Source: a virus
UHGV virus genome: UHGV-0423091
Direction: 5' to 3' (one strand)
DNA: 38,795 nt
Shown piece after piece: positions 2,939-38,795 of the stretch (its first letter is position 1; every line of letters begins with the position of its first letter). A program made the translations under genes and the position numbers. The notes under the pieces are model-generated. The model saw only the letters and a program-made list of their open reading frames with translations, ran no database searches and was not told where the DNA came from.

Positions 2939-3483
2939 TATAATCCTCCGGGTAATCTGGTTCCTGCTGCTGCCCCGATTGGCGCAGGGGTGCTTTGAGT
3001 AAACGGACTCCACGTCCCACCAAACATCTGGTACGCACCGTATGCCTTCAGAGGCGCAGTGAGCAATGTTGTTGCTGCTCCCACATTCCCCTGTTTACGG
3101 GCTGAACTGGCTTCTGCTTTATAGTTGGCAGCCTGAACCTGATAACCGTAAGCCTCGCGTTGCGCGTTATTCACCGTCGTCAGAGAATCAAGAGCGCCAA
3201 ACTGGGCAGTGTCGCCAAATATATCCAGCGCGTTACCTGTAGATAAATCAGCGCCGGTAGCCCCCATTGTCGCCGCCTGTGTACCAAGCCGCTGTCGGGT
3301 CTCTCTGCGACGTTGCTCAGCTTCAGCGTTACCTCTGTTTATTGCATCATTTGCCTGAGTAGTGGCTATATCTGCGTTAGCTTCTGCAACCTTCGAGGCA
3401 TACTTTCCCTGTTGGTACTGGGTGTATGCCTGAATGCCACTCATGGCGAGCATTGCACCACCAGCAATAACCGGATCGCACAT
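2938..3483 (-). CDS. internal virion protein, 181 aa, N-terminal hydrophobic segment, Ala/Gln-rich
   Basis: Track ORF; GGAG SD 8 nt upstream of ATG 3483; start overlaps upstream stop; composition typical of small ejection/internal proteins. Confidence 0.5.
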   Translation of the reverse strand: MCDPVIAGGAMLAMSGIQAYTQYQQGKYASKVAEANADIATTQANDAINRGNAEAEQRRRETRQRLGTQAATMGATGADLSTGNALDIFGDTAQFGALDSLTTVNNAQREAYGYQVQAANYKAEASSARKQGNVGAATTLLTAPLKAYGAYQMFGGTWSPFTQSTPAPIGAAAGTRLPGGL

Positions 3484-3947
3484 TATTTTCTCTCCATGTG
3501 AAATCTGTGGAAATTAAGACCAAGGGCACCATAAGGCGCGGCTTCTTCAAGCCTGAATCCAAGCCAGTGCAGCCATGCTTTGGCAACATGGTTTCGCTCG
3601 TCGACGTAGTTTTCCAGGCGCGGATAAACTGCCAGCATCTGCTGCAATACAGGGCGGCAGTGGCGAAGAAATGTCTTCTGATATTTTTCAATACGGCTGG
3701 TTCCGACCAGCCAGGGCGTACCATTGCCACCGATCATTGACGCCGGAGATACGCCAAACATGGTTACCAGTTCTCCGTTCGCAAATCCTGACCAGGCCAT
3801 AGTCGCAGTACGCAGACCAACACGCAGCGCATCTTCGGTAGTCATCAGTGATACCGCATACAGTTCGTCAATATCAGCCTGACGAACATCCGGCAAAATC
3901 ATCTGAAGATGCTCTTCGGTTGCGGGAATAATTTGAACATCGATCAT
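3483..3947 (-). CDS. hypothetical virion-associated protein, 154 aa
   Basis: Track ORF; translationally coupled on both sides (ATGA overlap at 3945-3949). Confidence 0.5.
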   Translation of the reverse strand: MIDVQIIPATEEHLQMILPDVRQADIDELYAVSLMTTEDALRVGLRTATMAWSGFANGELVTMFGVSPASMIGGNGTPWLVGTSRIEKYQKTFLRHCRPVLQQMLAVYPRLENYVDERNHVAKAWLHWLGFRLEEAAPYGALGLNFHRFHMERK

Positions 3948-12214: not shown

Positions 12215-12229
12215 TTACCTTTCAGGTAA
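12215..12229. promoter_or_regulatory. operator-like palindrome TTACC-tttca-GGTAA next to a TTGACA box (12193-12198)
   Basis: Perfect copy of the dispersed 15-bp palindrome, in the intergenic region between the 68-aa gene and the tRNA. Confidence 0.45.
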
Positions 12230-12551: not shown

Positions 12552-12628
12552 GTGGCATTAGCTCAGTTGGACAGAGCAACCGCCTTCTAAGCGGTTGGTC
12601 GCAGGTTCGAATCCTGCATGCCACGCCA
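12552..12628 (+). tRNA. tRNA-Arg (anticodon TCT, reads AGA/AGG), argU-like
   Basis: Hand-folded cloverleaf: 7-bp acceptor GTGGCAT/ATGCCAC, D-arm GCTC...GAGC, anticodon stem ACCGC/GCGGT with loop CTTCTAA, T-arm GCAGG-TTCGAAT-CCTGC, discriminator G and encoded CCA. Confidence 0.85.
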
Positions 12629-21066: not shown

Positions 21067-21129
21067 TCACCCATAAGGTAACAAAAATCAAGGATAGTTA
21101 CCTATGAGGTGCATTTACCTGTTGGGTAA
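21067..21129. promoter_or_regulatory. tripartite operator cluster with divergent promoters between the Cro-like and repressor genes
   Basis: Three palindrome copies: 21067-21081 TcACC-cataa-GGTAA, 21098-21112 TTACC-tatga-GGTgc, 21115-21129 TTACC-tgttg-GGTAA. Confidence 0.6.
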
Positions 21130-21184: not shown

Positions 21185-21769
21185 ATGAAAAGTATCCAGG
21201 ACGTCCGCAGGCAAAATCTCAACGACTTGATCGACCGTGAATTCAATGGTGTTCAGACGCGGATGGCAGAAAAACTTGGAACTCAGGCAAATCTGGTAAA
21301 CCGCTGGGCTCTTGGCAAGAAGGTTATCGGCGACCAGGTTGCACGAAAAATTGAAGCTGCCGCCAATAAACCCCGTAACTGGCTTGATATTGATCGCTCG
21401 CTTTCTCAGGAGGGTTTTCAGCCTGTCGGCCCGAGCGATATAGGTCAGCTGGCGGCTCACAACCTGGAACGCTGGATGAGCGAAAGCCGCGACCTTTCAA
21501 CGCAGGGAAAACTACACCGCGCATCCGGCGTCGCCCAGGTGACAATCAGCCGCCTGTTAAACAATGAGGTCAGCGTTTCCATTTCCACCCTGGAGAATGT
21601 TGCATCCGCATTCGGGCGTCACGGCTATGAATTACTGATTCACCCGCACGACCCTGCGACCATCAACTATGATCGCTCGCGCTACGCATTGTTACCCGAA
21701 ACCGAGAAAGCAAAGATCGAAAGTTACATTGAATTTGTCATCAACCAGAACGAAAAAAACAAACAATAA
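21185..21769 (+). CDS. phage repressor (CI role), 194 aa, two HTH-like segments, no S24 peptidase domain
   Basis: Divergent from the Cro-like gene; HTH-like segments near residues 25-45 and 110-135; no Ala-Gly/Ser-Lys autocleavage module; no SD (leaderless-like start). Confidence 0.65.
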   Translation: MKSIQDVRRQNLNDLIDREFNGVQTRMAEKLGTQANLVNRWALGKKVIGDQVARKIEAAANKPRNWLDIDRSLSQEGFQPVGPSDIGQLAAHNLERWMSESRDLSTQGKLHRASGVAQVTISRLLNNEVSVSISTLENVASAFGRHGYELLIHPHDPATINYDRSRYALLPETEKAKIESYIEFVINQNEKNKQ

Positions 21770-21826: not shown

Positions 21827-21903
21827 TTACCTAATGGGTAATTTTTTTAACTCATATCTATTGACATCAAACCAGATACGCATAATTATTACCTCAACGG
21901 TAA
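21827..21903. promoter_or_regulatory. second operator pair with sigma70-like promoter (TTGACA at 21861-21866) for the plus-strand recombination operon
   Basis: Perfect palindromes at 21827-21841 (TTACC-taatg-GGTAA) and 21889-21903 (TTACC-tcaac-GGTAA), the latter over the -10/start region. Confidence 0.55.
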
Positions 21904-24122: not shown

Positions 24123-24371
24123 ATGAAAGGTGCATTAGGTAAGAAGGAACTCCTGGCGGTGGTGCCACTGTCATGGAGCACTATCGACCGTATGGAGCGC
24201 GCAGGGGAATTTCCTAAACGCTGGTATATCACCGATAAACGCTGCGCATGGAACCGTGATGAAGTTGAGCGTTGGCTTGATGAACGTCAGGCAGCAAGCC
24301 CGGCAGAGTTCCAGGGTAAAAAACCTCCTGTTCAGCAACGTGTATATCGTCCCGTGAGCAACGCGGCATGA
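24123..24371 (+). CDS. AlpA-family HTH protein (excisionase/regulator), 82 aa
   Basis: Small basic protein with the MERAGEFPKRWYI...W...EVERW pattern typical of AlpA/Vis-type proteins; about 1.2 kb from the integrase. Confidence 0.65.
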   Translation: MKGALGKKELLAVVPLSWSTIDRMERAGEFPKRWYITDKRCAWNRDEVERWLDERQAASPAEFQGKKPPVQQRVYRPVSNAA

Positions 24372-25617: not shown

Positions 25618-26868
25618 TTATTCCCCCGCCATCCACTTCTCAAACTTCGACGGGGAGAACGGAATCAGATCCGTATGCTCCCCGTTAATCCAGGAATCAA
25701 TCATATCGGCCCACTGCTGCAACATGTAGGCGCGCTGTCTGGCGTATTCCGCTTTGTTATATACGGCGCGCACACCTTTCTGCTCATGTGCCAGAGCCTT
25801 TTCAATCCAGTCTGAAGGATAACCAGCCTCATGCAACAACGTACTGGCTGTACGGCGCATATCGTGTACGGTGAAGTCCTGAATATGCTCACCATCTTCA
25901 TTTATTATTTTCACCGTTCTGTCGATCAGAGAGTTCAGCGCGGCATTAGATAATGGCTTCCGGAAATTGTAACGACCAGGAACCAGATATTCACTTCCAC
26001 CAGCGCACATCTGCAACCCGACCAATATATCCTGTGCCTGTTTAGGCAGGTAAATAACGTGCGCCCGGCTTCCCTTCATACGGTCTGAAGGAATTGTCCA
26101 TGTCCATTTTTTAAAATCTATTTCATCCCACGTTGCATTGGTGAATTCGCCTTTACGAACCATAGTGATAAGCACCAGCTTTAAAGCCATTTTCATAGTG
26201 CCCATAGCGCCAATGGCATCCAACGTGCGGAAGAACAGGCCAATTTCTTCTGGTGTCAGTGTTCGCTCTCGTGGTTTAAATATGGCGATAGACGAAGGTT
26301 TAATGTCAGCCGCAGGATTAAACAAACCATGACCACGGTCATTGGCGTGACGGTATACGCTGCTGATGATCTCCCGGGCCTGCACTGCTGTTGCCCGGCC
26401 ACCGCGTTCGACAATCCGGTCACACAAATCACGAACCATCGATGTGGTAATTTCAGCCATCATTTTGTTGCCAAGAACCGGAAGTATGTCACGGTCGATC
26501 ACCGCCTGCTTCATTGCGCGGGTACTTTCAGCCAGGATGACGTGTTTCATATAACTGTCGGTATGTACCGCAAATGTCTCGGCACCACGAATCTTTTTGA
26601 TACCGTCACGTTTAGCCGCAGCCGGCGACTGGCCTGCTTTAAGCAGCTTCTTTGCAGCAATCAGTTCTTCCCGCGCTTCTGCCAGGCTGATACCGTCACG
26701 CCCATACTGCCCGATTACCAGTGTTTCGCGGCGACCGTTGATACGGTAGTCATAGCGAAACGAGACCGTACCTGACGTAAGCACAGCTACATACAGCCCG
26801 TCACGATCGGAAACTTTGTACAGTTTGTCCTGTGGCTTGAGGTTCTTTAATTTTGTATCGGTAAGCAC
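25618..26868 (-). CDS. tyrosine integrase, P4-type, 416 aa
   Basis: Size; N-terminal MLTDTKLKNLKP-type arm-binding region; C-terminal HDMRRT...LAHE...Y catalytic region. Confidence 0.85.
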   Translation of the reverse strand: MLTDTKLKNLKPQDKLYKVSDRDGLYVAVLTSGTVSFRYDYRINGRRETLVIGQYGRDGISLAEAREELIAAKKLLKAGQSPAAAKRDGIKKIRGAETFAVHTDSYMKHVILAESTRAMKQAVIDRDILPVLGNKMMAEITTSMVRDLCDRIVERGGRATAVQAREIISSVYRHANDRGHGLFNPAADIKPSSIAIFKPRERTLTPEEIGLFFRTLDAIGAMGTMKMALKLVLITMVRKGEFTNATWDEIDFKKWTWTIPSDRMKGSRAHVIYLPKQAQDILVGLQMCAGGSEYLVPGRYNFRKPLSNAALNSLIDRTVKIINEDGEHIQDFTVHDMRRTASTLLHEAGYPSDWIEKALAHEQKGVRAVYNKAEYARQRAYMLQQWADMIDSWINGEHTDLIPFSPSKFEKWMAGE

Positions 26869-27186
26869 AATTCACCCGTATAGAAACCATTTTCATGACG
26901 GTATGAGAGTATACCTTTAAGGTAATACCGTCACCTGTACCGCCGAAAAATATGGTGTAGAGTGAATAGAAATGAATACATAAAAACAAAAAACCCTCTG
27001 TAAAAACAGAGGGTTAAATTAGTATCTGAATAGGAATGAGTTGCTATGAGTTAGCTGTTAATCATTCCCACTCAATTATTTACGGATACAATAACCAATT
27101 GAGTGATAACATTTTTCCAAATCTCAATTTTTACCGTACCGTTTTATATACCGTCACCGGAAATCAGTACCATGAAAAATGCCATG
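26869..27186. other. candidate attP / integrase control region
   Basis: Non-coding 318 bp immediately upstream of the integrase; 11-bp direct repeat ATACCGTCACC at 26925-26935 and 27148-27158; nested palindrome GACGGTAT...ATACC-tttaa-GGTAA-TACCGTC; TACCG repeats at 27132-27141. Confidence 0.3.
26981..27013 (-). terminator. rho-independent terminator ending the tailspike-lysis operon
   Basis: CCCTCTG-6 nt-CAGAGGG followed on the minus strand by TTTTTTGTTTTT. Confidence 0.7.
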
Positions 27187-27669
27187 CTATCTGGTCAGGG
27201 TGTCGTACTGTTTTTCACAGACTCTTCCGGCTTCGGCTGCCCGGTCAGCATACTCTGCCAGTTGTCTGTTTCTCTCGAGAGATTTACTGAGCACGTCGGC
27301 AAGCAAAACTCCGGTGTCTGCGGCTGACGTCCCAGCGCCGACAATGGCGTTATACTGCCTGAGCTGCTCACGGATGGCAACGAGCTGTTGCTGCAACCGG
27401 CCAGCGCGAGCGGCAGCATCAAGAGCATCATTGCGCGCCTGGTCGATCCTCTGCTGCGCTTCACGTTCATTGATCGATTTCTCCTGTTCGTAGTGCTGAC
27501 GAACTCTCTCATCTTCGGTTTTGCGGTCTTCTTTCGCCTGTGCATACCCGGCGTCGTACTGACGACTACCGTGTACATTCCAGGCAACAACCCCTGATAT
27601 GACCAGAACAGCAAGCACCGCCACGATAAGCAACTGTTTCCAGTATGCTTTTACGAATGCCCAGATCAT
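27187..27669 (-). CDS. i-spanin (Rz-like), 160 aa
   Basis: N-terminal transmembrane helix then charged coiled-coil; directly after the endolysin (start overlaps its stop). Confidence 0.65.
27195..27470 (-). CDS. o-spanin (Rz1-like) lipoprotein, embedded in the +1 frame of Rz
   Basis: Signal peptide ending in lipobox LAGC ([26 protein letters not shown]); AGGAG upstream of ATG 27470 (alternative start 27431); entirely inside the Rz ORF. Confidence 0.55.
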   Translation of the reverse strand: MNVKRSRGSTRRAMMLLMLPLALAGCSNSSLPSVSSSGSITPLSALGRQPQTPEFCLPTCSVNLSRETDNWQSMLTGQPKPEESVKNSTTP

Positions 27670-28295
27670 ACCGCCAGCACCTTACTGGCAGTGATGTACC
27701 GCGCTCTCCGGTCGTCGATGCCGTTCCTGCCACCATTGATAATCAAAGTTACACGTGCAATATCGCCGGTATACTTCATGCAACCTTTGCTGGAGAAGAA
27801 CCACGCCGCGCTACGAGCCGCATATTCGTCCTGCGCTAACAGTTCAGGATTCTCCAGCAGGTCCACTTTCAGGCCGTTTCCGCAGTCACGATAGTTATTC
27901 AAACCGGTAATCTGGATAAGTCCACGGCCTCGGTAATTCCAGCCGTCACCAGGGGAATTGTTCCCCATGCGTTTGCTGTACACCAGATTGGCGATCGCTC
28001 GCTGGCGCTCGAGTGGCAATGGTGGTTCACCAGCACGGCGACCCAGTGCATTAGCCTGCCCCTGAGTGAGACGCCCAGCCCGAACGAAGTTAGCCAGACC
28101 GCTGACACTGTAGTTGAAATTCTCCTGCAATCTGGTGAAGCCCACAGATTCATGCCCGACCTGAGCAATAAACATTGCCAGATCTTCTGGTTTGCTGATA
28201 CCAAACTCTTTCATCGCAGAAGTTATATGCGAGAACCAGCGTGCGGCCAGCGCCTCGCTAATACCAGCAGCTCGCTGGAATTGTTTAATCTCCAT
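27666..28295 (-). CDS. endolysin, glycoside hydrolase family 19-like (chitinase-like lysozyme), 209 aa
   Basis: Track ORF 27666..28526 trimmed to ATG 28295 (GAGG SD); GH19-like segments [12 protein letters not shown] and [13 protein letters not shown]. Confidence 0.8.
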
Positions 28296-28593
28296 GTTTA
28301 GACCTCGATATTTTGAAAATCTGAACAACGTTACCGCGTGTTTTAATAACCGCGGCAAGCATGACAGCGTTGATAATGACCTCAGATAAATCCACAGCCA
28401 TTGGCGTGCGTAACCAGATTGCATAGACGACACGAACAGGAATACTGGCCGCAGCAACAATAAGGAAATAAGCAAGCCACCCTCCCCATCTTCGATGTTG
28501 AGAGCCGTTACGCCGGAATGTGACAACGCGAATTGCTATGCCAGTACAAATAACTGCATTGGTGATAAGCAAAAAAAACTCATGCGTTACCAT
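28285..28593 (-). CDS. holin or antiholin, 102 aa, about three transmembrane segments
   Basis: Hydrophobic small protein immediately upstream of, and overlapping, the endolysin start. Confidence 0.5.
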
Positions 28594-28996
28594 CGTCTTT
28601 TCTCCCCGGAATTAAATCGCGTGGATTGTCTGAACGGTGGTAGAGCCATATACCAATACGCACAGCGACAATTGCTGACACGAATGCGCCAGCAGAGAAA
28701 ACAATACCTTTTTCAAAAGAGTCCTGCGTGATGGTAGGGATCAGGCTGGCTATGCCGATAAGAATTGATGCTGCTGGTTTGTAGAAAAGAAGTCCGCAGA
28801 GAAAGCTGAGCATCGACAAGAGTACGCGACGACGAATTGGATACTCTACCGCAGAGGTAACAAAAATTACCGCACCAGCAAGAGCACCGAGCGCCACCTC
28901 TGGCGGAACACCTACGATAACCGCAGCAAGAGAGCTCACACTAAGCCATTGATTTAAAGACTCAGTTGTTATGTTAACCGACATAGCACACACCAT
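28580..28996 (-). CDS. holin-like membrane protein, 138 aa, about four transmembrane segments
   Basis: First gene of the lysis cassette; overlaps the next membrane-protein gene by 14 bp. Confidence 0.5.
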   Translation of the reverse strand: MVCAMSVNITTESLNQWLSVSSLAAVIVGVPPEVALGALAGAVIFVTSAVEYPIRRRVLLSMLSFLCGLLFYKPAASILIGIASLIPTITQDSFEKGIVFSAGAFVSAIVAVRIGIWLYHRSDNPRDLIPGRKDDGNA

Positions 28997-29159
28997 TTTT
29001 TTTGTACATATCGAACCTCTTCACTTACAGATCACCACACACAACAAACCATATATGTTTAACTATCAGATATTCTGAAATAACTATCAATTCATTGGTT
29101 TTTGATGACAATATTCATAAACAACCATAAATGTAAGGCGGTTTATTAGTTGCCAAAAT

Positions 29160-31766
29160 TTATTTCCTGCAAACTCCAGATGATGTTAATCCATCAAAAA
29201 TAACCTGCACTCTGGCAATAACAACATCAACTCCAGAAGTCGTTTCACTTGCATAACCAAGTTTTATTTTAGATACAATATCCTGAGTAAGTTCAGATAT
29301 TTCAGTTTCTGCAATGTTACCAGAGGCCATGTGATTATCGTATGCCATAGAATGAATTCCATTATTGACATCGATTGAACTAGTATGTTTGTGAAAAATA
29401 GATGGGTTTACCTGAAACGAATTTGAACCGATAAGATCAGAAGATACTCCATTCATCACTGCAGTACAGCGTGGAATATTATTATCGGTTATTGTCATAT
29501 GCAGACGGTTACCAGTTAACCCCTCACCAAGTGTGACATAATACGCCAATTCTCCACCTGCATATTGTTTCCCCTCAACAATAACAGTAATCCCTCTTAA
29601 TTTCTGATTAGCTAGCAAAAACTTATTACTGTCTATATAGCATTTATTTGCGGAACCAAAAACAGCCCCTTCTAAAATATCTGATGAATAGGAATAAATA
29701 AGGTCACCTGAAACAAAGGAAAGAATATCAGATACGTTTCCTTTTGTAGATAAGTTAGGAGAATAGCTATTAACTATTTCATATTGTCCTGTGATAAAAT
29801 CAAGGTAAACGCCATCAGTTTTCATCTCTTTAAAGAAAATGCTATTAAAGCATCCATCAAGAACCGGTGGATATATTCTAGAGCTTGCATAAGCTGTTGG
29901 GTGATTCTTATTATTACCACTACCAGGCGAATAAACATCTTCGTTAGTCATTGACTTTTTAAGCTTAACAGGAATCATCGGCTGCATATCAATTTTGCAG
30001 TTCCCTGAACCACCGATGCGAGGATAAAATAAACCACCAAACCTTACAATATTACTACTGAATAGTATTTCGTTATCGTTAAGTGTTATCTCAACGAAGT
30101 TTCCAATAAGTTTAAATTCAACTGAAAACAAACCAAGTGGAGCAGATAATTTAACAATATTGCGCATAAAAACACCTACAGTCCCTGTTGATGCAGTATA
30201 GTGTGTGGTTTCAAAGGCAGAGCCTGTATATTTCAAGTTAATGAAATTATTATGGTATGAAGACAATTGAAATTGAATCCCAGAACTAAGGATTTCAATA
30301 TCTACAAATTGAATCCTTACGGAGTAAGCATATGATAAATCTTCATATTCATAAGGCAATGTAACATCTTTTGAAATAGTTGCCCTCACATAATTACCAG
30401 AAACCACATCAATCCCATCACGTACAGCATTAAAGTAACGATTAAAATCAATAAGCCCAGCGCCAACATACTGCGCATATGACCGAGTCCATCCTGCCAT
30501 TGCGTTTCGTCCATTCTGAGCTTCTAAACTGCTAAATTCAGAGTCACTTGTGGTACTTGATGGGAGGATATTTGTACAAAAAACAATTTCAGGCATTGAA
30601 GTAATATCATTCAGTTCAGCCATCAATTTAAAAAAAGTTTTCTGCGGGAAGTTACCAACATCCCAACCATCTCCGTCATTCATGCCAAAAGCAATAATAA
30701 CAACATCAGGGTTAATATCACGAATGTAATCAATCCAGCGTCTGTTCGTGTCTGAATACCATGGGTACTGTGAGTTATAAGAAGTAATTGCTGGTGTATC
30801 TTTTCCAAGGTCATAGTACCTCATTCCACCAATTGCTCTGTTAAATAAAGTAGAACTTGGGAATTTCTCTTGCAAAACTCTCTTAAGATGAGCGGCAAAA
30901 ATGCTTGATCGATCCACTGTGCTTATATTATATGGGGCACTTAAGCTGTCACCAACTAACACTATTTTTGAGTTAGGCCTTGATAATCTCTCAAGTGTTT
31001 TAGATGTGACTAAACTGCATGAATTAATGAACTGAGCACTATTTAGTGTCTGTTCAAGTGTATCACCAAATCTGGTACCAACGTATGATGATCCGTTGAC
31101 ACTTGCTAGCTTAAGGCATAAATCAGCAGTATCTGTAATTGAAAAAATAGGAACAGGACGTCCTAAACTGTCATACCCCTGAATTGAGTTTGCCCTAGAA
31201 GATGCTGATGCCATTTCGCTTACTATCTCAGGGAAGCGGAGTGTTTTAGATATGTTGCTGTTAATAACTCCTTTGATAGATGAGTCTGTATATTTCTTCG
31301 TGGAAGCGTCCTGAGGAAATAATGGATCATCAAGGTTACGAATACGATTGCCTAGTGCATCGTAGTAAGTGGCACTAAATGATGGTTTACGAAGAGCCAG
31401 CCGAGCCATGCTTTTGACTAACTGGATCAGCATCGTTAGCTTATCAAAAGCATCCTCATGCACTTCCGCAAAGAACTTACCCTGATTGCGCAGATCAGTT
31501 TCCTGTGTAACCGGTAGCTCTCGTGATATAGAAATCTTATAGCCATTGGCCAACGCCTTCGACAATATTACATTTCCACCATTGTATCCTCCGGCCCCGG
31601 TAACTATATAATCAGTATCAAGAGTCAGTACGGTGATATTTTCATGAATATCAACAACCTGCACAATCAAATCAGATTTATTGAAAACCCTAAAGGCATA
31701 CGGAAACGATGTCGTAACGCCGTTACCGGTGTATTCGTTGTGGTCAACTTCGGTTGAGACCGTCAT
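29160..31766 (-). CDS. tailspike / tail fibre with T7 gp17-like N-terminal anchor and central SGNH (GDSL) esterase-like domain, 868 aa
   Basis: N-terminus YTGNGVTTSFPYAFRVF...LIVQVV resembles the T7 tail-fibre anchor; GDSL block (IVLVGDSLS, residues ~268-276, DNA ~30939-30965) and GxND block (AFGMNDG, ~358-364); AT-rich C-terminal half; GGAG SD. Confidence 0.8.
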   Translation of the reverse strand: MTVSTEVDHNEYTGNGVTTSFPYAFRVFNKSDLIVQVVDIHENITVLTLDTDYIVTGAGGYNGGNVILSKALANGYKISISRELPVTQETDLRNQGKFFAEVHEDAFDKLTMLIQLVKSMARLALRKPSFSATYYDALGNRIRNLDDPLFPQDASTKKYTDSSIKGVINSNISKTLRFPEIVSEMASASSRANSIQGYDSLGRPVPIFSITDTADLCLKLASVNGSSYVGTRFGDTLEQTLNSAQFINSCSLVTSKTLERLSRPNSKIVLVGDSLSAPYNISTVDRSSIFAAHLKRVLQEKFPSSTLFNRAIGGMRYYDLGKDTPAITSYNSQYPWYSDTNRRWIDYIRDINPDVVIIAFGMNDGDGWDVGNFPQKTFFKLMAELNDITSMPEIVFCTNILPSSTTSDSEFSSLEAQNGRNAMAGWTRSYAQYVGAGLIDFNRYFNAVRDGIDVVSGNYVRATISKDVTLPYEYEDLSYAYSVRIQFVDIEILSSGIQFQLSSYHNNFINLKYTGSAFETTHYTASTGTVGVFMRNIVKLSAPLGLFSVEFKLIGNFVEITLNDNEILFSSNIVRFGGLFYPRIGGSGNCKIDMQPMIPVKLKKSMTNEDVYSPGSGNNKNHPTAYASSRIYPPVLDGCFNSIFFKEMKTDGVYLDFITGQYEIVNSYSPNLSTKGNVSDILSFVSGDLIYSYSSDILEGAVFGSANKCYIDSNKFLLANQKLRGITVIVEGKQYAGGELAYYVTLGEGLTGNRLHMTITDNNIPRCTAVMNGVSSDLIGSNSFQVNPSIFHKHTSSIDVNNGIHSMAYDNHMASGNIAETEISELTQDIVSKIKLGYASETTSGVDVVIARVQVIFDGLTSSGVCRK

Positions 31767-31870
31767 GTTAAATCTCCAGATAGTCGCAGCACCCGTTGCG
31801 CCGCATATCTGGTTATTCTATTACCTGAAAAACCATATATGTATAGAAAGACTATAAATACCAATAGATA

Positions 31871-31885
31871 TTACCTTTATGGTAA
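31871..31885. promoter_or_regulatory. operator-like palindrome TTACC-tttat-GGTAA
   Basis: Perfect copy in the divergent control region between the tailspike and antirepressor operons. Confidence 0.45.
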
Positions 31886-31924
31886 TTTGCAAAACGTGCT
31901 GGATAGCAAACAAATTATTTGATA

Positions 31925-31940
31925 CTGTATAAATATACAG
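31925..31940. promoter_or_regulatory. LexA (SOS) box CTGTATAAATATACAG
   Basis: Perfect CTGT-N8-ACAG with AT-rich spacer, flanked TA...TT, 22 bp upstream of ATG 31962. Confidence 0.7.
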
Positions 31941-31961
31941 TTATTGCATGGAGAAGATAAG

Positions 31962-32219
31962 ATGCAGCGGTATCACTATCCACTGGAAGACGGATTTACC
32001 GAAAGGATTCACACGCCGGGAGGCGTCAGGTCACTGGTGGAGGGATCGCACTTGATGAAATTACTCCGGGATCTCGATAAGGATGGATTTAATGTCGATG
32101 GCCCACTTGCCGAACTGACTGCACTGATTAACTACGTCACCAGCTCACAGATGTCTATGCAGGATCTGCAAACACATCTCGACTATTGTGCCGAACAATT
32201 ACGAAAACAAACCAGATAA
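31962..32219 (+). CDS. small protein, 85 aa, paralogous to the C-terminal domain of the downstream antirepressor; candidate small antirepressor
   Basis: Track ORF trimmed to ATG 31962 (GGAGAAG SD); by-eye alignment to antirepressor residues ~150-225 (IHxPxGV...E.S.LM.LL..L..DG..V.G..AEL...DxQTH). Confidence 0.55.
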   Translation: MQRYHYPLEDGFTERIHTPGGVRSLVEGSHLMKLLRDLDKDGFNVDGPLAELTALINYVTSSQMSMQDLQTHLDYCAEQLRKQTR

Positions 32220-32222
32220 GGT

Positions 32223-32265
32223 TTGCAATTACCAAGTGGAGTGCTTATATTTACCATTGCGGTAA
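32223..32265 (+). promoter_or_regulatory. sigma70-like promoter (TTGCAA-N17-TATATT) with operator-like site TTACC-attgc-GGTAA (32251-32265) over the start region
   Basis: Near-consensus -35/-10 with 17-bp spacer; palindrome overlaps the -10 and predicted +1. Confidence 0.45.
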
Positions 32266-32532
32266 ATTTACATCGCACTCCTCTTGTGCCATAGTAATCG
32301 GGCACTGGCAAAATCCAGTGCCGGGATTGGCGTTCCGGATTACTACAGAGGCACATATGCCGCATAAGCGGTTTTTTTATGTGTAAAGCGCACCTATTCT
32401 ATGGTGGGCTGTGTGGGGGCACCGAAAGGTGCGCCGGGTTCCTTTGTAGCCGGTTACGCCAACCCTGCACAGTTCACCACCAACCGATTGGCGTCGGTAG
32501 TGGTGATTAACCTAACTACAAAGGTGATCACT

Positions 32533-33219
32533 ATGACTGCTAACGTAACCCCATCTGTTTTTCATTTTGAATCAGAAGCAACCATTCGAGCCATTGTTAT
32601 TGATGGAAATCCTTGGTTTGTTGCCAAAGACGTTATTAAAGCTCTTCAACTGACAAACCCCACTATGTCAATAAAATCTCTTGATGATGATGAAAGGGCT
32701 AAATTTAACTTAGGCCGTCAAGGCGAAACCAATATTATCAACGAGTCAGGCCTCTACACACTGATCCTCCGCTGCCGCGACGCAGTGACACCAGGCACTA
32801 TCCCCTACCGCTTTCGTAAATGGGTTACAGGTGAGGTTCTTCCTCAGATCCGCCGCACCGGAAGTTACATTAAAAACTCGCTCCCGCAGGAAGAACGCAT
32901 AAAGATGGTTGCCGACCAAGTAGCCAACGCCACGGCGTCAGCAGTGATGCAGGCAATGAAGATAGAGAACAAAACCTACAGTGCACCACTGAAGCCCGGC
33001 TACCGCAGCCTGATTCATTCGCCGTCTGGTGTTCTCGGCCTGACGGAGAACTCACTGCTGATGAATTTGCTGAACCAGTTACAGGAAGACGGGCATGACG
33101 TATCGGGCGCGGCGGCGGAGCTGACCACCATGTTCTGCTACATCGTCGGTGTGAGCAAATGCCTGCGTGATATCCAGACGCACGCGGAGTACATCAACGA
33201 CAAAGCAGGGTTCTTCTGA
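32533..33219 (+). CDS. antirepressor, Bro-N domain family, 228 aa
   Basis: Track ORF 32401..33219 trimmed to ATG 32533 (AAGGTG SD); N-terminal Bro-N-like segment IRAIVIDGNPWFVAKDV...LYTLILRC. Confidence 0.7.
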   Translation: MTANVTPSVFHFESEATIRAIVIDGNPWFVAKDVIKALQLTNPTMSIKSLDDDERAKFNLGRQGETNIINESGLYTLILRCRDAVTPGTIPYRFRKWVTGEVLPQIRRTGSYIKNSLPQEERIKMVADQVANATASAVMQAMKIENKTYSAPLKPGYRSLIHSPSGVLGLTENSLLMNLLNQLQEDGHDVSGAAAELTTMFCYIVGVSKCLRDIQTHAEYINDKAGFF

Positions 33220-33291
33220 CGGGCGGCGGCACAGGGATGTGCCTTTAAATAATTCTGTACAGATTGCAGACTGGGGGTGAATAGCGTACTA

Positions 33292-33306
33292 TTACCTTAA
33301 AGGTAA
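33292..33306. promoter_or_regulatory. operator-like palindrome TTACC-ttaaa-GGTAA upstream of the accessory module
   Basis: Perfect copy 43 bp upstream of ATG 33349. Confidence 0.45.
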
Positions 33307-33348
33307 ACCTGTTTTTATTTTATACCTGTAACTTACCGGAGATTAAAG

Positions 33349-33675
33349 ATGACAAAACTTGGATTCGTGATGAGAGGTCCGGTAAGAAGCGGAACTCATG
33401 CAAAGCGTAGCAAGAGTCGTATTTTTACTGGTAAGGTTGTAGCACGTAAATCAGCTATTGGCTCGTTCAATAGTGAAAATGCGGCATTGCGCCATATTTT
33501 TATCAGCACAAAGCCAAGAGCATCCGCTGATGTGCATACAATGACTATTCCTATCACAAAGAATATAAAGCGGATAAAAAAGCTCTCATCTGCAGAATCA
33601 AAAGAGATATCTTTCCGCCAGCTTAACTCATTAGAAACGCATATGAAGGAAGAGGAATTCGATGTTTTTGAGTGA
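33349..33675 (+). CDS. highly basic small protein, 108 aa (accessory module gene 1)
   Basis: GGAG SD 7 nt upstream; Lys/Arg-rich; AT-rich codon usage; overlaps the next gene by 14 bp. Confidence 0.5.
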   Translation: MTKLGFVMRGPVRSGTHAKRSKSRIFTGKVVARKSAIGSFNSENAALRHIFISTKPRASADVHTMTIPITKNIKRIKKLSSAESKEISFRQLNSLETHMKEEEFDVFE

Positions 33676-34174
33676 GTATAGCGGGAAGGTTATACCTACT
33701 GGTGAGTTTAAAACTGATGACTTTCTGATTTCGCTAAAAGATGCTTTTAAACAACACTGGCGTCATGGTCATCATCCTGATCTGGGAAAAGATACTCTTT
33801 TTGAAAGACCAGACGAAGTATTAGGTTTCCATCTCAGAAAGGTTCATGTCAATATTGGTGAATATGCATCATATTCATACTCATGTACTGAACAGTGTTG
33901 GGATGAGTGGTCATATGGATTGATTGATGAACAAGGAAATTACAGGCCAAAACCAACCAGTAACGCATATCTCATATATGCAGTCAATGAAATAAGAGAT
34001 GCAGCCTTACTAGCTTATTGGGACCCGCCCGCACACACCAAAGCTAACGCAAAAGTTTGGATGGATTCCGTATTGAATTTCACAAAATTATTTCATGAAC
34101 GAACGAATACAGCTCCACTTAGTAGAAATGTTTATCCGTGGGATTATTCGTACAAATCCAAAAAGCCTGCATAG
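33662..34174 (+). CDS. hypothetical protein, 170 aa, His/Trp/Tyr-rich (accessory module gene 2); loose by-eye resemblance to YafO-type toxins
   Basis: GAGG SD; translationally coupled to gene 1; resemblance is from memory and low-confidence. Confidence 0.5.
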   Translation: MFLSEYSGKVIPTGEFKTDDFLISLKDAFKQHWRHGHHPDLGKDTLFERPDEVLGFHLRKVHVNIGEYASYSYSCTEQCWDEWSYGLIDEQGNYRPKPTSNAYLIYAVNEIRDAALLAYWDPPAHTKANAKVWMDSVLNFTKLFHERTNTAPLSRNVYPWDYSYKSKKPA

Positions 34175-34255
34175 TAGTTTTTTATGGACGAAACAAAAGT
34201 CAGTGCTACACTCATTGACGCCACATTGAGGTGGCTTATAGATGGAAATTTCACA

Positions 34256-34417
34256 ATGAAAAAAGCATTTGCTGCACTGTTCGTTTTGTTGTCTCTGGTA
34301 GCTTCAACTCAGGCCTTTGCCGGTCGTTGTCAGCACGACAGCGATACTGCCGCTGACGGCTCCCGCTGCGGTGGGCGTTCTGCGGATTCCCGCCCGGGCG
34401 GCGGTGGCATTCGTTAA
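34256..34417 (+). CDS. small secreted peptide precursor, 53 aa (signal peptide plus 31-aa mature peptide with two Cys)
   Basis: Internal ATG of track ORF 34184..34417; MKKAFAALFVLLSLVASTQAFA signal with AxA-like cleavage site; followed by a terminator hairpin. Confidence 0.4.
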   Translation: MKKAFAALFVLLSLVASTQAFAGRCQHDSDTAADGSRCGGRSADSRPGGGGIR

Positions 34418-34440
34418 AAACAAGGCCGCGAAAGCGGCCT
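34414..34440 (-). terminator. intrinsic terminator ending the late structural operon (also closes the convergent plus-strand module)
   Basis: AGGCCGC-GAAA-GCGGCCT followed on the minus strand by TGTTTTTAA. Confidence 0.55.
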
Positions 34441-34448
34441 GTGACATG

Positions 34449-34745
34449 TCACGTTCCTTTTCTGAATGATAGCCGTTCGAAAAATGATGACATTCCACCG
34501 CAGACAATAGCAAAGATGATCCCACCAAAGAAGAGAAGGCCAGCCTGCCACCACTCCCACCGCCATACATCCACAGCACCAACCATACCAACAATCGCTC
34601 CAACAAACGGAATATAACTCACGATGAAAGCAATGGTGGCTGCAATTATCCAGTGCAATCCCCACCATGATTCAAGCCCAGCCATAATTGCTGCCAACTG
34701 AAAAAGGCCAACGACGATATAAACAATGAATCCTATCGCTTGCAT
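34449..34745 (-). CDS. small integral membrane protein, 98 aa, last gene of the late operon
   Basis: Three hydrophobic segments rich in Gly/Ala/Ile/Trp. Confidence 0.55.
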   Translation of the reverse strand: MQAIGFIVYIVVGLFQLAAIMAGLESWWGLHWIIAATIAFIVSYIPFVGAIVGMVGAVDVWRWEWWQAGLLFFGGIIFAIVCGGMSSFFERLSFRKGT

Positions 34746-34940
34746 GTAGTCACCTATTTACCCAGTAAAAATCAGAGGCCTCCCCTCAATAAGGCTTGCA
34801 ACAAGAACTATTCCCTGCACAACAAAGATGAACCAGCAAATAGCTTGAGTCTGAGGGTTAAGAAAATATTTGTAGCGGTCAATAAATAACAACCCACCAG
34901 AAATTATCACACTCAAAATAATTAAAAACACAACACTTCC

Positions 34941-37415
34941 TTATTGCGGAGTGACATCCTGAGGTCGCCACCAGTATGTCTGATTAAACTCTTTCTTCGA
35001 ACGTTGCTCCATTTTACGCAAATAGCCTGGTGAAAAATACTCCTGCATCTGGTTAAAGATCATATGATCGAGAGCCGCCTTTAAGTACCAGAGATTCGCA
35101 CCTGGCATCAAACCTTTCCCCAGCTTCACCAGATCACCACCAGTCTGCTCACTCTTCCCTTCCACAGCATTTAACGGTATGCCCTGAGCAATCTTCACTA
35201 CGTCATCAACCAGACCAGCTACCGGGCCAAGCATCGACGCCAGCGCGCCGCTTCCGTACCTAGTGTGATCTGACAATAAAAAGTCACCATAAAGGCCAAG
35301 ACCACCACCTTTCAGTAGAGCACCAAGCCAGAATTTTGCGGCATCTTCTCCTGTCATCTCTCGAGGATTACGACCAGACGCAAGGTCGTTAAGTTGTTGC
35401 GACAAAGCGCCAAGAATGGTCGTACTGGCAATAAACGTCGCAATATATACCGCACGCCCACCAGCAGACGGCATACCCATAGCGCGTGACCAGTGACGCA
35501 TAACAACCGAGATAGGGAACGATTTAAACAGGAAAACACTTCTCGTTAATTCACCTTTCCATGTTCCACGCTGAATACCAGAACCGGTTATCAGTTGCTC
35601 ACGTGCTCCCGGTGTAATAACAGCCATATCAACTTCTTCAGTTACGGCACCGAGCAGTTTACGCATTGCCTCAAATTTCACGCGTTCAGGCTCACCAAGA
35701 TGTTTAACTGCTGAATCAGGGATACGCATAATGCTTTCCGGTGTCAGCATCGTATTATTACCGTTCCCCCAGTCCTCCTGTTGCGCCAGCTTCCATACGC
35801 TCCAGTCTGTGTCAGTAATCCCTTTGCTTTTCAGGATACGAAAATCAGAGTCATCGAGGCTACGAAGGTCTGGTGTTCGTGACACTACTTCTCCCAGGCT
35901 TCCCATCATGGTTACGCCATAGGCGCGCTTGTGCGCATCTGACCATGCTGTAAGCCCACTGGCACGCATTACCGCCGTTGCCGCCCAACGAGACACTGAC
36001 GGCCCCATATTATCCATCGCCCAGCGGTTAACGCTGCCAAGTAGAGATTCCATCGCCAGACCAGCGCGGCGCGCCCGCGCAAGTTCTGTACGGTTCGTTG
36101 GGTCCATAGCTTCAAGCTGGTTGCGGAATAACTGGTTCATTGGAAGGTTGGTAACCTTCGCAGACAGATACATGGTTCCAAGATCAGAGAACGATGACAG
36201 CAACGCGGATCCGAGTCTGCTGGCAACCAGCCAGTTGCGGATATTGTCAGACCATCGCGCGATGTGCGGATTCGCTACAGGCTGTGTCTTTCCGGAAATA
36301 AAGTTGTACAGATTCTCTGTGTTGTTCGCCAGCCGCTCGACTTTACCGGTTTTACTCGGGTTAGCTGTTGCCGTTTCTGCCTTCACCTGATCAAGAAGAG
36401 AGCGGAAAACATGATCGGGGTTTGGGCCATATGTTTCCACCAGTGCAATATCTTTACTGATACCTTCCAGGTGACCGACCATGATTTCCCATAGAGAGCG
36501 ATCGCCATAAAGTTGCTGATATTGCAGATAGGAATCTGCATCTTTGAAATGTATCTGTCGTGATGCATTACCCCGGTTAGCACGTGCGCCGGAAATTCGC
36601 ATTCCGATATCAGTAAGCTTATTCAGCCCACCAGTAGCGATCGTGTTATAAGCCTCTCCAAGAAATGCAGACAACTCGGCATCGTTCATCAGTTGTCCAT
36701 CGGCTCGGATATAATATTTGCGATCCAGCTTACCTATAACATCGCTAACCCACTTATCCTTTGATACCGCCCCAACCTTTTCCATAGAATGATGTTGAGG
36801 GATCCCCCAGTTTTCGAGATAGCCAATGTCCCCACCAGCATCATTAAACCGGCGGCGCAGCAGCTCTGTAACTTCTCTCCACGCCTTAGCACCTTTTCTT
36901 GCTTTAGCATTGCCAGTATTTTGCCCCCGCATTTCATATACCAGGTCACGTACGCCCGCTTCATCTTCAAACAGACCAAAAAAGCGAGGATCAACTGCTT
37001 CGAATGCCTCCTGCAATTGACTCAATGCATAATCACGGGTGGCTTTTGTTCTGGATTCAACAGAGAGGAAATTAGATTTACCGTCTGCATTAAAAGCTAT
37101 AGTACGGTTAAGAGCGCCAAGTTTCCCATCAGCCCCTTGATAGCTATTGATAAATTTATCCAATCTCTGACGCGCGGCTATAGTAAGAGCCACACGACGT
37201 TTCTTTAATGCCGCTTCTCGCTGTAATTCTTCAGATGCCAATTGTGCTGCTCGATATAGCCGCTCTGATTCGGAAAGTTGTCGCCACGACATCGGGTCAT
37301 CACGAGCAATGGAGCGCATATTTCGATAAATGCGGTCTTCAATGTTCTGTATTTCTCGCGCCGTTAACGTGCGCTGCGCCGCCTGCTGGACCGCTTGTAT
37401 ACATTCCTGTCTCAT
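34941..37415 (-). CDS. large internal virion (ejection/core-type) protein, 824 aa
   Basis: Track ORF; size and position within the late operon; no enzymatic motif recognised. Confidence 0.6.
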   Translation of the reverse strand: MRQECIQAVQQAAQRTLTAREIQNIEDRIYRNMRSIARDDPMSWRQLSESERLYRAAQLASEELQREAALKKRRVALTIAARQRLDKFINSYQGADGKLGALNRTIAFNADGKSNFLSVESRTKATRDYALSQLQEAFEAVDPRFFGLFEDEAGVRDLVYEMRGQNTGNAKARKGAKAWREVTELLRRRFNDAGGDIGYLENWGIPQHHSMEKVGAVSKDKWVSDVIGKLDRKYYIRADGQLMNDAELSAFLGEAYNTIATGGLNKLTDIGMRISGARANRGNASRQIHFKDADSYLQYQQLYGDRSLWEIMVGHLEGISKDIALVETYGPNPDHVFRSLLDQVKAETATANPSKTGKVERLANNTENLYNFISGKTQPVANPHIARWSDNIRNWLVASRLGSALLSSFSDLGTMYLSAKVTNLPMNQLFRNQLEAMDPTNRTELARARRAGLAMESLLGSVNRWAMDNMGPSVSRWAATAVMRASGLTAWSDAHKRAYGVTMMGSLGEVVSRTPDLRSLDDSDFRILKSKGITDTDWSVWKLAQQEDWGNGNNTMLTPESIMRIPDSAVKHLGEPERVKFEAMRKLLGAVTEEVDMAVITPGAREQLITGSGIQRGTWKGELTRSVFLFKSFPISVVMRHWSRAMGMPSAGGRAVYIATFIASTTILGALSQQLNDLASGRNPREMTGEDAAKFWLGALLKGGGLGLYGDFLLSDHTRYGSGALASMLGPVAGLVDDVVKIAQGIPLNAVEGKSEQTGGDLVKLGKGLMPGANLWYLKAALDHMIFNQMQEYFSPGYLRKMEQRSKKEFNQTYWWRPQDVTPQ

Positions 37416-37420
37416 TTAAT

Positions 37421-38795
37421 TTAACCTCTCAAGAAACACGCCACAGCGACATCAAACAGGCTGGAATCCTGTATTGCCTGCTCACTTTCCCTGTTCGCTT
37501 CATCCAGTACTTCACGCGCGCTGCGCGATTGTGGATTACCATCATCATCCAGCACGGTGATTATCATGTCAGGTGATTCAAGCAGCGAGTCTTCAGCTAT
37601 GCGCAGATCAATATCTCCTGCCTGATCTGACATCATTTTTTGTTCTGCCTGTTGCAATATTTTATCAGCCTCAAAAGGAGCTACTTCGTCTGGCGTCCTG
37701 ACCTCTGCTGTTTTATAGAATGAAACAGCCTGAGCATTAAGTTCACTTTCTGCCTGCTGTCTCCGAGCCAGTTCTGCTCGAGCTTCAAAAAACTGACCGC
37801 CAGGCTCGTGCGGTGCCAACGCGTTACGGGAAAATTCCAGGCGTTCTTGTGCCTGCCGGATTCGTTGATCAATATCGCGAAGTCTGGCCTGTTTATCTGA
37901 TCGAGCACGAGACAAAGCTTTACCGCTACCGGTTGGCTCTTCTGCAAGAATTTGTGCACGCTGTTCAGTGAGATTTTCAATAATTCGTTGGCTATTAGCG
38001 ATTTCCGACTGGTAAACCTGTCTATCGCCACGCGGCAAAAGCTGCGCGGCCTGTTCTTCAAGCAACCGATTTTCTATAGCGCGCGCCGTTACTCCATCAT
38101 CTACAGATGACAGAGCCTCATTAACTGCCTGAGACAGCAGACTCTTGCGCCCAGGAATTTCACTGAAAGATGCAGACTCAACAATGCTGGCAACGTCTAC
38201 AGGTCTCCCCTGGCTAACATCAGACATGGCTTTTCGCAGAGCCTGAATGTGAGAATTGCGCGAAAGCACGTTGATCGGCACGCCGGGAGCAATATCAATT
38301 TCAGCATGATGAGCGGCATTCGCCGCCAGTGCAGCATCGACATCAACTGGTGAAAAATTTGGTGCGCTTGTAGACTCGCCGCGAGAGTTAATAAATCTGC
38401 CGACACCACCAAACGCCACTCCAAGAACAGCATCAATAGCAATTGCCTGTCGATCCAACACATCATACTGATTAGCCATTTCGCTATAGCCACCATCACG
38501 AAGCGTTTTTGCAGTAAGCCCACGCTGTGCCATACCGAACGCAATATTTGTACCTGCGGCATAGGCAATATCTGGCGTTGCACGTACTGCTGTTGCTGCA
38601 GCGCGTCGCACTGAACTTTCACCCGTCCGCGCAAGCTGAGACGCCACACCTTCCGCCAGCGCACCACCAGCACGTAACCCGAGGCTCATAGGGATCAGTG
38701 TTCCGGCACCAGCAGTAATACCCTGCACTAATCCCGCTTCCTGCGCCGTCCTGAAATCAACACCCTGTGCTGTCAGCCGTTCAAACTCAGAAAAA
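37421..38795 (-). CDS. virion protein, at least 435 aa; reading frame remains open to the window end (possibly 5-prime partial)
   Basis: Track start is GTG 38728 with AGGAAG SD, but no in-frame stop occurs between 38729 and 38795, so the true start may lie outside the window. Confidence 0.5.
   Translation of the reverse strand, partial: FSEFERLTAQGVDFRTAQEAGLVQGITAGAGTLIPMSLGLRAGGALAEGVASQLARTGESSVRRAAATAVRATPDIAYAAGTNIAFGMAQRGLTAKTLRDGGYSEMANQYDVLDRQAIAIDAVLGVAFGGVGRFINSRGESTSAPNFSPVDVDAALAANAAHHAEIDIAPGVPINVLSRNSHIQALRKAMSDVSQGRPVDVASIVESASFSEIPGRKSLLSQAVNEALSSVDDGVTARAIENRLLEEQAAQLLPRGDRQVYQSEIANSQRIIENLTEQRAQILAEEPTGSGKALSRARSDKQARLRDIDQRIRQAQERLEFSRNALAPHEPGGQFFEARAELARRQQAESELNAQAVSFYKTAEVRTPDEVAPFEADKILQQAEQKMMSDQAGDIDLRIAEDSLLESPDMIITVLDDDGNPQSRSAREVLDEANRESEQAIQDSSLFDVAVACFLRG

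Follow-up and report, generated by a model that had tools for sequence, protein, structure and literature searches.

The question raised by this locus is where, and by means of which DNA sites, the phage recombines with the chromosome of its host. The window analysed is a stretch of 38,795 nucleotides, virus genome UHGV-0423091, and all coordinates refer to it. An intergenic gap of 318 bp (26869–27186) separates an integrase gene from an Rz-like gene, both on the minus strand. A first-pass annotation of the same sequence had placed a candidate attP in this gap, beside a P4-type integrase. The integrase gene, int (25618–26868, minus strand), has a GTG start and encodes 416 amino acids; the phiV10 equivalent is annotated INT_P4. 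Pfam domains of the product are Arm-DNA-bind_3 (PF13356, residues 2–87, 3.9e-20), Phage_int_M (PF22022) and Phage_integrase (PF00589). This combination identifies a P4-type tyrosine integrase, as first annotated, and PF13356 provides it with a separate N-terminal arm-binding domain. On the other side, domain content and the phiV10 annotation assign the gene at 27187–27669 (minus strand) to the DUF2514 Rz-like spanins. Given these neighbours, the gap is the space from the end of the lysis operon to the start of int.

The segment 25600–27700, which includes int and lysis genes, shares 97.7% identity with Escherichia phage phiV10 across its entire length and 84% with Salmonella phage epsilon15, two members of the genus Uetakevirus. 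The att region is 97.5% identical to that of ZX5 and phiV10, and outside this segment the window resembles phiv142-3, PAS61, ZX5 and related phages, with similarity interrupted in a mosaic pattern. By sequence similarity, then, the window is a phiV10/epsilon15-type podophage of the genus Uetakevirus. Compared with these relatives nothing essential differs, and it is a mosaic variant with another tailspike and other accessory genes. Within the stretch 27000–38795, which includes an 868-residue open reading frame at 29160–31766, no phage record of the collection covers more than about two-thirds of the length; the uncovered parts may be divergent or swapped accessory genes. Similarity to Phi05_2388 B, GPEC1258, Tyrion, PAT1 and BUCT711 is lost at about 27163–27175, just past the outermost repeat on the Rz side, and a different spanin gene starts beyond this point in those records. 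The mosaic joint coincides with the outer edge of the int–attP module.

The attP core is a 17 bp sequence at 27060–27076, which reads ATTGAGTGGGAATGATT on the minus strand. Exactly these 17 bp are common to attP in the window, to attL and attR of the prophage in NZ_CP027390.1 and to the empty attB of K-12 MG1655, and the four-way comparison reveals no identity beyond them. The sequence corresponds to the last four codons of guaA, I-E-W-E, followed by the TGA stop. Crossover probably occurs within GAGTGGGA (27066–27073). The core lies 191 nt from the start of int at 26868, inside the interval first proposed for attP and not in another part of the phage genome. The host match, which the first-pass annotation had suggested seeking especially at tRNA 3′ ends, is found instead at the 3′ end of guaA.

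Lysogens confirm the assignment. Of 5,426 complete E. coli genomes searched, 569 (572 records) contained the att region, which was contiguous in only five. The int-side piece of split matches typically stops at window position 27076, abutting guaA. In strain 2015C-4944 the prophage sits between guaA and yfgI, and the prophage-derived phage records phiv142-3 and TL-2011b start and end at the core sequence. On either side of the core, where lysogens are split, the window continues without a break along phiV10, so that its reading as the excised, or virion, configuration holds. For vB_EcoP_ZX5, a published study locates this core 190 bp 5′ of int; PCR and Sanger sequencing confirmed attB at the guaA 3′ end, and the authors state that the sequence had also been shown for phiV10 and epsilon15. 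The Uetakevirus core (attgagtgggaatgatt) and its guaA 3′ target are thus identical to those identified here, and the core–int distance is 191 nt in the window against the 190 bp reported. Core and integration site are established, by computation for the window and by the experiments reported on a near-identical phage. The ZX5 report means that this central finding is correct and already in the literature.

Some chromosomal and plasmid records have other arrangements. In strain A_5 (NZ_CP195580.1; locus L011, 2860–2900) the int-side arm is fused to a truncated bigA at GATAATGCAGTGGGAATGATT, a sequence with two differences from the core, and the exchange can be placed to the right of the TG/GC difference. 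This junction is probably a secondary integration site. In five E. coli chromosomes (hits H26–H30) attP is uninterrupted, bordered by int and by lysis genes, and two further att places are present; one example is L010 (NZ_CP027599.1, 1517493–1523192). Either tandem double lysogeny at guaA or an artefact of assembly could account for this arrangement. Two 41,027 bp records from duck E. coli, NZ_CP079771.1 and NZ_CP079768.1, are filed as plasmids. They encode an integrase 98.8% identical to that of the window, and attP is uninterrupted as far as the match extends; both are probably circular phage genomes captured in assemblies.

Flanking the core on both sides is a repeated motif that does not resemble it, at 27148–27156 on the Rz side and at 26925–26933 and 26896–26904 on the int side. 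The 11 bp direct repeat of the first-pass annotation, ATACCGTCACC, is confirmed by direct reading at 26925–26935 and 27148–27158, and the other elements listed there were likewise recovered at the positions given. The underlying unit is the 9-mer ATACCGTCA (sense TGACGGTAT), of which the window contains seven copies against 0.18 expected. None of 100 shuffled sequences reached seven, and six of the copies fall within 26348–27156. The additional TACCG repeats were also correctly seen: six copies of the pentamer TACCG/CGGTA fall in the 318 bp, where the background rate would give 0.84, and no other part of the window is as dense in it.

Full and partial copies of the 9-mer define two arms. On the Rz-proximal arm, the candidate arm-type site at 27148–27156 (minus strand, sense TGACGGTAT), the second copy of the direct repeat, is recognized by motif count and lies within a 21-nt block invariant in eight phages that are 78–98% identical. 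Beside it are partial copies (27132–27141, minus strand, sense ACGGTACGGTA), with TACCG pentamers at 27132 and 27137 and the sequence AAAACGGTA invariant in the eight-phage alignment. On the int-proximal arm, the site at 26925–26933 (minus strand, sense TGACGGTAT), the first copy of the direct repeat, is invariant in 16 sequences. A degenerate copy 12 nt upstream (26937–26945, minus strand, sense CGGCGGTAC) matches at six of nine positions, retains an invariant CGGTA in the 16 sequences and forms a tandem pair with the full site; in Klebsiella and beta-proteobacterial relatives it is a full tandem copy. Motif search also finds an inverted site at 26896–26904, where TGACGGTAT is read on the plus strand and which forms the other arm of a palindrome discussed below. 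This site is degenerate in two of the eight phages, with no compensating change in its partner arm, and is thus dispensable at least in those phages. The eight aligned phages share two blocks without change, GTGACGGTATATAAAACGGTA in the Rz-side arm and TGACGGTATTACC in the int-side arm, and differ in the non-coding sequence next to them.

Conservation of this motif extends well beyond the genus. A scan of one genome per species identified 47 loci encoding relatives of the integrase. In 29 of these, from alpha-, beta- and gamma-proteobacteria and with integrases 47–91% identical, the end of guaA (IEWE and stop) with GAGTGGGA is found 195–364 nt upstream of int. The intervals between guaA and int at the 29 loci contain 54 exact 9-mers in 7,264 nt, compared with one in 74,167 nt of flanking sequence. 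The first direct 9-mer is always 137–139 nt from GAGTGGGA, in all clades, whereas its distance to the int start ranges from 65 to 193 nt; usually it is the second of a tandem pair with 12-nt spacing. Conservation tied to the core and not to the gene start is as expected of an intasome component, with binding itself a prediction from sequence. Since it is kept beside guaA-targeting integrases across alpha-, beta- and gamma-proteobacteria, TGACGGTAT is very probably an arm-type Int site. The earlier description of the repeats as arm-type is in keeping with their presence on both sides of the core and their family-wide conservation, and their identity as arm sites may be called strongly supported. 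A full-text literature search for TGACGGTAT returned unrelated primer matches only.

Two further copies of the 9-mer lie inside int, at 26690–26698 (codons 57–60) and 26600–26608 (codons 87–90), both on the minus strand and both encoding RDGI. The epsilon15 record annotates these copies as integrase-binding sites. In that record GTGACGGTAT is marked four times in this way: once on the Rz side, once upstream of int and twice inside int. As both copies are read in frame as R-D-G-I, inside the arm-binding domain or next to it, the 9-mer might be a by-product of coding two RDGI peptides, with no function at the DNA level. The copies are also distant from the core (360–470 bp, which is far for an intasome), and they were not found in beta- or alpha-proteobacterial relatives or in relatives below about 59% identity. 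Such a purely coding origin is unlikely. The codon-57 9-mer, retained in enterobacterial and some other gamma-proteobacterial relatives, survives when the first residue is I, P, A or S, always via a codon ending in T, whereas at a comparable RDGL at codon 22 the synonymous positions vary freely. Third positions are identical in 62 of 72 cases inside the two sites, against 0.38–0.53 elsewhere in int; such differences as occur are in the last codon (Ile/Lys), on the 3′ margin of the 9-mer or immediately past it. This pattern points to selection on the DNA sequence. The candidate roles are an extended arm or regulation. The copies inside int had been missed by the first-pass annotation, as had the core position, the guaA target and the identity of the palindrome arms with the direct-repeat motif.

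An AlpA-family protein is encoded at 24123–24371 on the plus strand (Pfam Phage_AlpA, 3.1e-05) and is a candidate excisionase, or recombination directionality factor. At 20 or more related loci, and in the resistance island GIsul2, an AlpA homologue adjoins int. Homology and co-inheritance with int make it the likely candidate for the excisionase. The same linkage means that co-occurrence alone cannot assign the 9-mer to Int, as both proteins co-vary with the motif. Moreover, a second conserved repeat is present in the same arm. Its two copies, TCATTCCTATTCA at 27027–27039 and TCATTTCTATTCA at 26963–26975 (both sense, minus strand), form a repeat family conserved in eight phages; the repeat, TCATT(C/T)CTATTCA, flanks an intrinsic terminator on both sides and is confined to the int-proximal arm. 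Distant relatives (loci L026–L050) carry CTATCG-type pairs at these positions. It is conceivable that TGACGGTAT is bound by the AlpA-family protein or some other factor, and that the true Int arm sites are another motif, such as CTATTCA or CTATCG. The arrangement makes this improbable: TGACGGTAT stands on both sides of the core, direct and inverted and at a fixed core distance, the typical pattern of Int arm sites. Directionality factors generally bind a single arm, and the second repeat occurs only in the int-proximal arm. The AlpA-family factor is one candidate binder of the second repeat.

The arms also contain a site for transcription termination and possibly one for DNA bending. The intrinsic terminator at 26992–27015 (minus strand) consists of ten pairs followed by TTTTGTTTTT. 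The phage sequence AACCCTCTGTTTTTACAGAGGGTTTTTT and the native K-12 guaA terminator (window 26985–27020 against locus L004) differ by only two loop bases, which suggests that host-derived sequence is present in attP. Related elements, some with unrelated cargo, have their own hairpin and T-run at the same position, with different stems. Because hairpins of unrelated stem sequence are kept there, the conserved job of the terminator is most likely to end the reconstituted guaA transcript and to shield int from guaA read-through. In the phage it also ends lysis-operon transcripts. The terminator of the first-pass annotation is thus real, while its attribution to the lysis operon covers only part of a role that across the family more likely concerns guaA termination and insulation of int. 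On the other side of the core, the sequence ACTCAATTGGTTA at 27092–27104 (minus strand) is IHF-like, with one mismatch to WATCAANNNNTTR. A search of the att region returned only such one-mismatch matches; at this one, TCAAT....TTA is invariant in eight phages and the epsilon15 record, which marks IHF sites as well as the terminator, has IHF at the corresponding position.

The int-proximal arm contains a nested palindrome. Its perfect 9-nt outer arms, 26896–26904 and 26925–26933, lie 20 nt apart in a structure of 38 nt, and they are an inverted and a direct copy of the 9-mer that forms the direct repeat. The inner palindrome, TACCTTTAAGGTA at 26912–26924, is an exact TACC-N5-GGTA, part of a repressor-operator-like element with a GGTAAT flank at 26910–26926 that is identified by motif count and by epsilon15 annotation. 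The window contains 14 copies of TACC-N5-GGTA against 0.30 expected, and these 13-mers start at 12216, 12833, 15753, 18723, 18785, 20731, 21116, 21828, 21890, 26912, 28847, 31872, 32252 and 33293. Operator clusters at 21068–21128 and 21828–21902 lie on both sides of a repressor gene (21185–21769, plus strand). The operators around this gene were found by pattern search and not by a scan for short inverted repeats; the latter (arms at most 12 nt apart) gave only a terminator-like hairpin and one unrelated palindrome there. The gene product, with an HTH_3 domain and flanking operator clusters, is taken as the immunity repressor (Rep) and presumed binder of TACC-N5-GGTA, and it is homologous to the phage SPC32H repressor of known structure (5D50, E = 4e-42). 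Comparison with the epsilon15 gene map places the other copies upstream of packaging, portal, tailspike and replication genes; in all, most operons are preceded by a copy. The distribution suggests that a single repressor would control nearly every transcription unit, int included. The operator-like half-site pair that the first-pass annotation saw in a nested palindrome (26897–26933) is therefore present, and its motif flanks the repressor gene.

Comparison with annotated operators shows one difference in detail. The motif of the window matches ATTACC-N5-GGTAAT, the operator type of the SPC32H/epsilon15 Rep proteins, which the epsilon15 record annotates as a repressor site in corresponding positions. 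The copy at 26910–26926 matches this consensus at 15 of 17 positions, with both mismatches at outer positions, and no Rep site was found annotated upstream of int in the epsilon15 record, where the whole palindrome is labelled RNase III. The half-sites are nevertheless invariant in 16 aligned phage and prophage sequences, in which the N5 spacer is variable. An interpretation of the palindrome as an operator for Int only was partly revised, TACC-N5-GGTA being a genome-wide operator motif.

The location of the palindrome is consistent with control of int. As a terminator lies between the core and int, the int promoter must lie in the 120 nt that hold the palindrome. A putative −10 element, TATACT at 26908–26913 on the minus strand (TATAAT in epsilon15), was read from sequence and alignment; it is conserved and is overlapped by the right half-site of the operator. 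A consensus promoter scanner gave no minus-strand sigma-70 match between terminator and int, and the best −35 candidate requires a 15-nt spacer, so that the proposed promoter rests on alignment and has the status of a hypothesis. On this hypothesis the int promoter would lie in the palindrome region, Rep would block it in lysogens, and the Int sites that flank it could add autoregulation.

The RNase III label in the epsilon15 GenBank record implies a different function, in which the 38-nt palindrome would act as an RNA hairpin, processed in read-through or int transcripts, and not as protein-binding DNA. The RNA does fold, at −18.7 kcal/mol (z = −2.72). Among the 16 aligned sequences, however, none of the 13 pairs shows a compensatory change; every break affects one side only, and the covariation term is +0.05. 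The outer arms consist of a 9-mer that is also present without a pairing partner at other places in attP, and the inner arms of the operator motif spread through the genome. A promoter at the proposed place would also leave most of the hairpin out of the int mRNA. An Rfam search returned no family at threshold, only sub-threshold chance matches. The RNA-hairpin reading was rejected for lack of covariation and is, all told, very unlikely; the palindrome is better read as a composite of predicted Int and repressor sites in DNA.

Known integration systems place these features in context. Lambda- and P4-type attP sites share their overall logic with the site described here: a heterobivalent integrase and arm sites flanking a short core, to which the window adds a putative bending site and a candidate for the small directionality factor. 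Unlike those, the target is the 3′ end of a protein gene and not a tRNA or an intergenic site. Transfer RNA genes are common targets of P4-type integrases and the window does contain a tRNA-Arg gene, but the idea that the true att site lies elsewhere, for example in a tRNA-like sequence, and that the gap is only a regulatory spacer, is already refuted by prophage junctions at 27060–27076 in hundreds of genomes, by agreeing published PCR and sequencing, and by prophage-built records that start and end at the core. A tRNA-targeting site of the P4 type was also rejected, the core being guaA coding sequence plus stop codon. ARAGORN finds only tRNA-Arg (12552–12628) in the window and no tRNA in or near the att region. 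This gene (anticodon TCT) lies between the terminase and portal genes and is unrelated to integration. A further difference from lambda- and P4-type sites is that int is transcribed away from attP, which puts its promoter inside an arm, and that there are probably extra sites in the int reading frame. P4 Int and KplE1 IntS autoregulate via arm sites overlapping their own promoters, a parallel that serves as analogy only.

A second comparison is with GIsul2, which is reported to insert at the 3′ end of guaA with the core recombination motif GAGTGGGA. Its integrase is 54% identical to that of the window, with an AlpA-family gene adjacent. GIsul2 differs in being a resistance island and not a phage, and the copy examined occupies a secondary site on a plasmid (locus L059, A. 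baumannii ATCC 17978 plasmid, int at 2501–3703). No TGACGGTAT with up to one mismatch was found in the 600 nt upstream of this int or in its first 400 nt, and recurring (C)ATGGTAT-like sequences are found upstream. The 9-mer is thus not universal in the integrase family.

The following scheme is proposed. The P4-type integrase would recombine the 17 bp core (27060–27076) with the identical sequence at the guaA 3′ end, probably exchanging strands inside GAGTGGGA, and the prophage would land between guaA and yfgI. Since the core contains the end of guaA, four codons and the stop, and a near copy of the guaA terminator would be supplied by the phage 44 nt downstream of the core, guaA should stay intact and properly terminated. 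The N-terminal domain of the integrase would read TGACGGTAT as its arm-type site. The predicted Rz-side arm has one full and partial copies; the int-side arm has a tandem pair plus an inverted copy, two more sites fall in the int reading frame, and an IHF-like site is beside the core. A TACC-N5-GGTA operator would overlap the int −10, flanked by two inverted arm sites, and int may thereby be shut off in lysogens by the immunity repressor and possibly also by Int itself. Induction would then release int together with the AlpA-family excisionase candidate. That the region is the attP of a phiV10/epsilon15-type temperate podophage, with integration, arm sites and regulation along these lines, is held with high confidence. 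Within it, promoter position, control by repressor and Int, and the roles of IHF and the excisionase are inferred only.

A broader interpretation is offered tentatively, as falling a little short of probable. It holds that the int-proximal arm is a regulatory node, with the promoter between inverted arm sites and under an operator, and that the sites in int are selected as DNA. If it is true, the 9-mer and its 137–139-nt spacing, conserved among guaA-targeting integrases of three proteobacterial classes, point to one ancient intasome design shared by phages and by resistance or genomic islands.

The guaA attachment site is already known for the genus, and in this respect the finding is correct but ordinary. 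The main result confirms the published site and adds the coordinates of the core. The operator at the int promoter, the DNA constraint on the sites in the reading frame and the family-wide 9-mer and spacing are possibly undescribed so far. Operator over promoter and arm sites within the gene provide hypotheses on how int is silenced in lysogens. The conserved arm 9-mer provides a simple sequence signature for finding elements beside guaA. The 3′ end of guaA is a landing site common to Uetakevirus-type phages and the sul2 resistance island GIsul2, and occupancy by either one could consequently affect the other.
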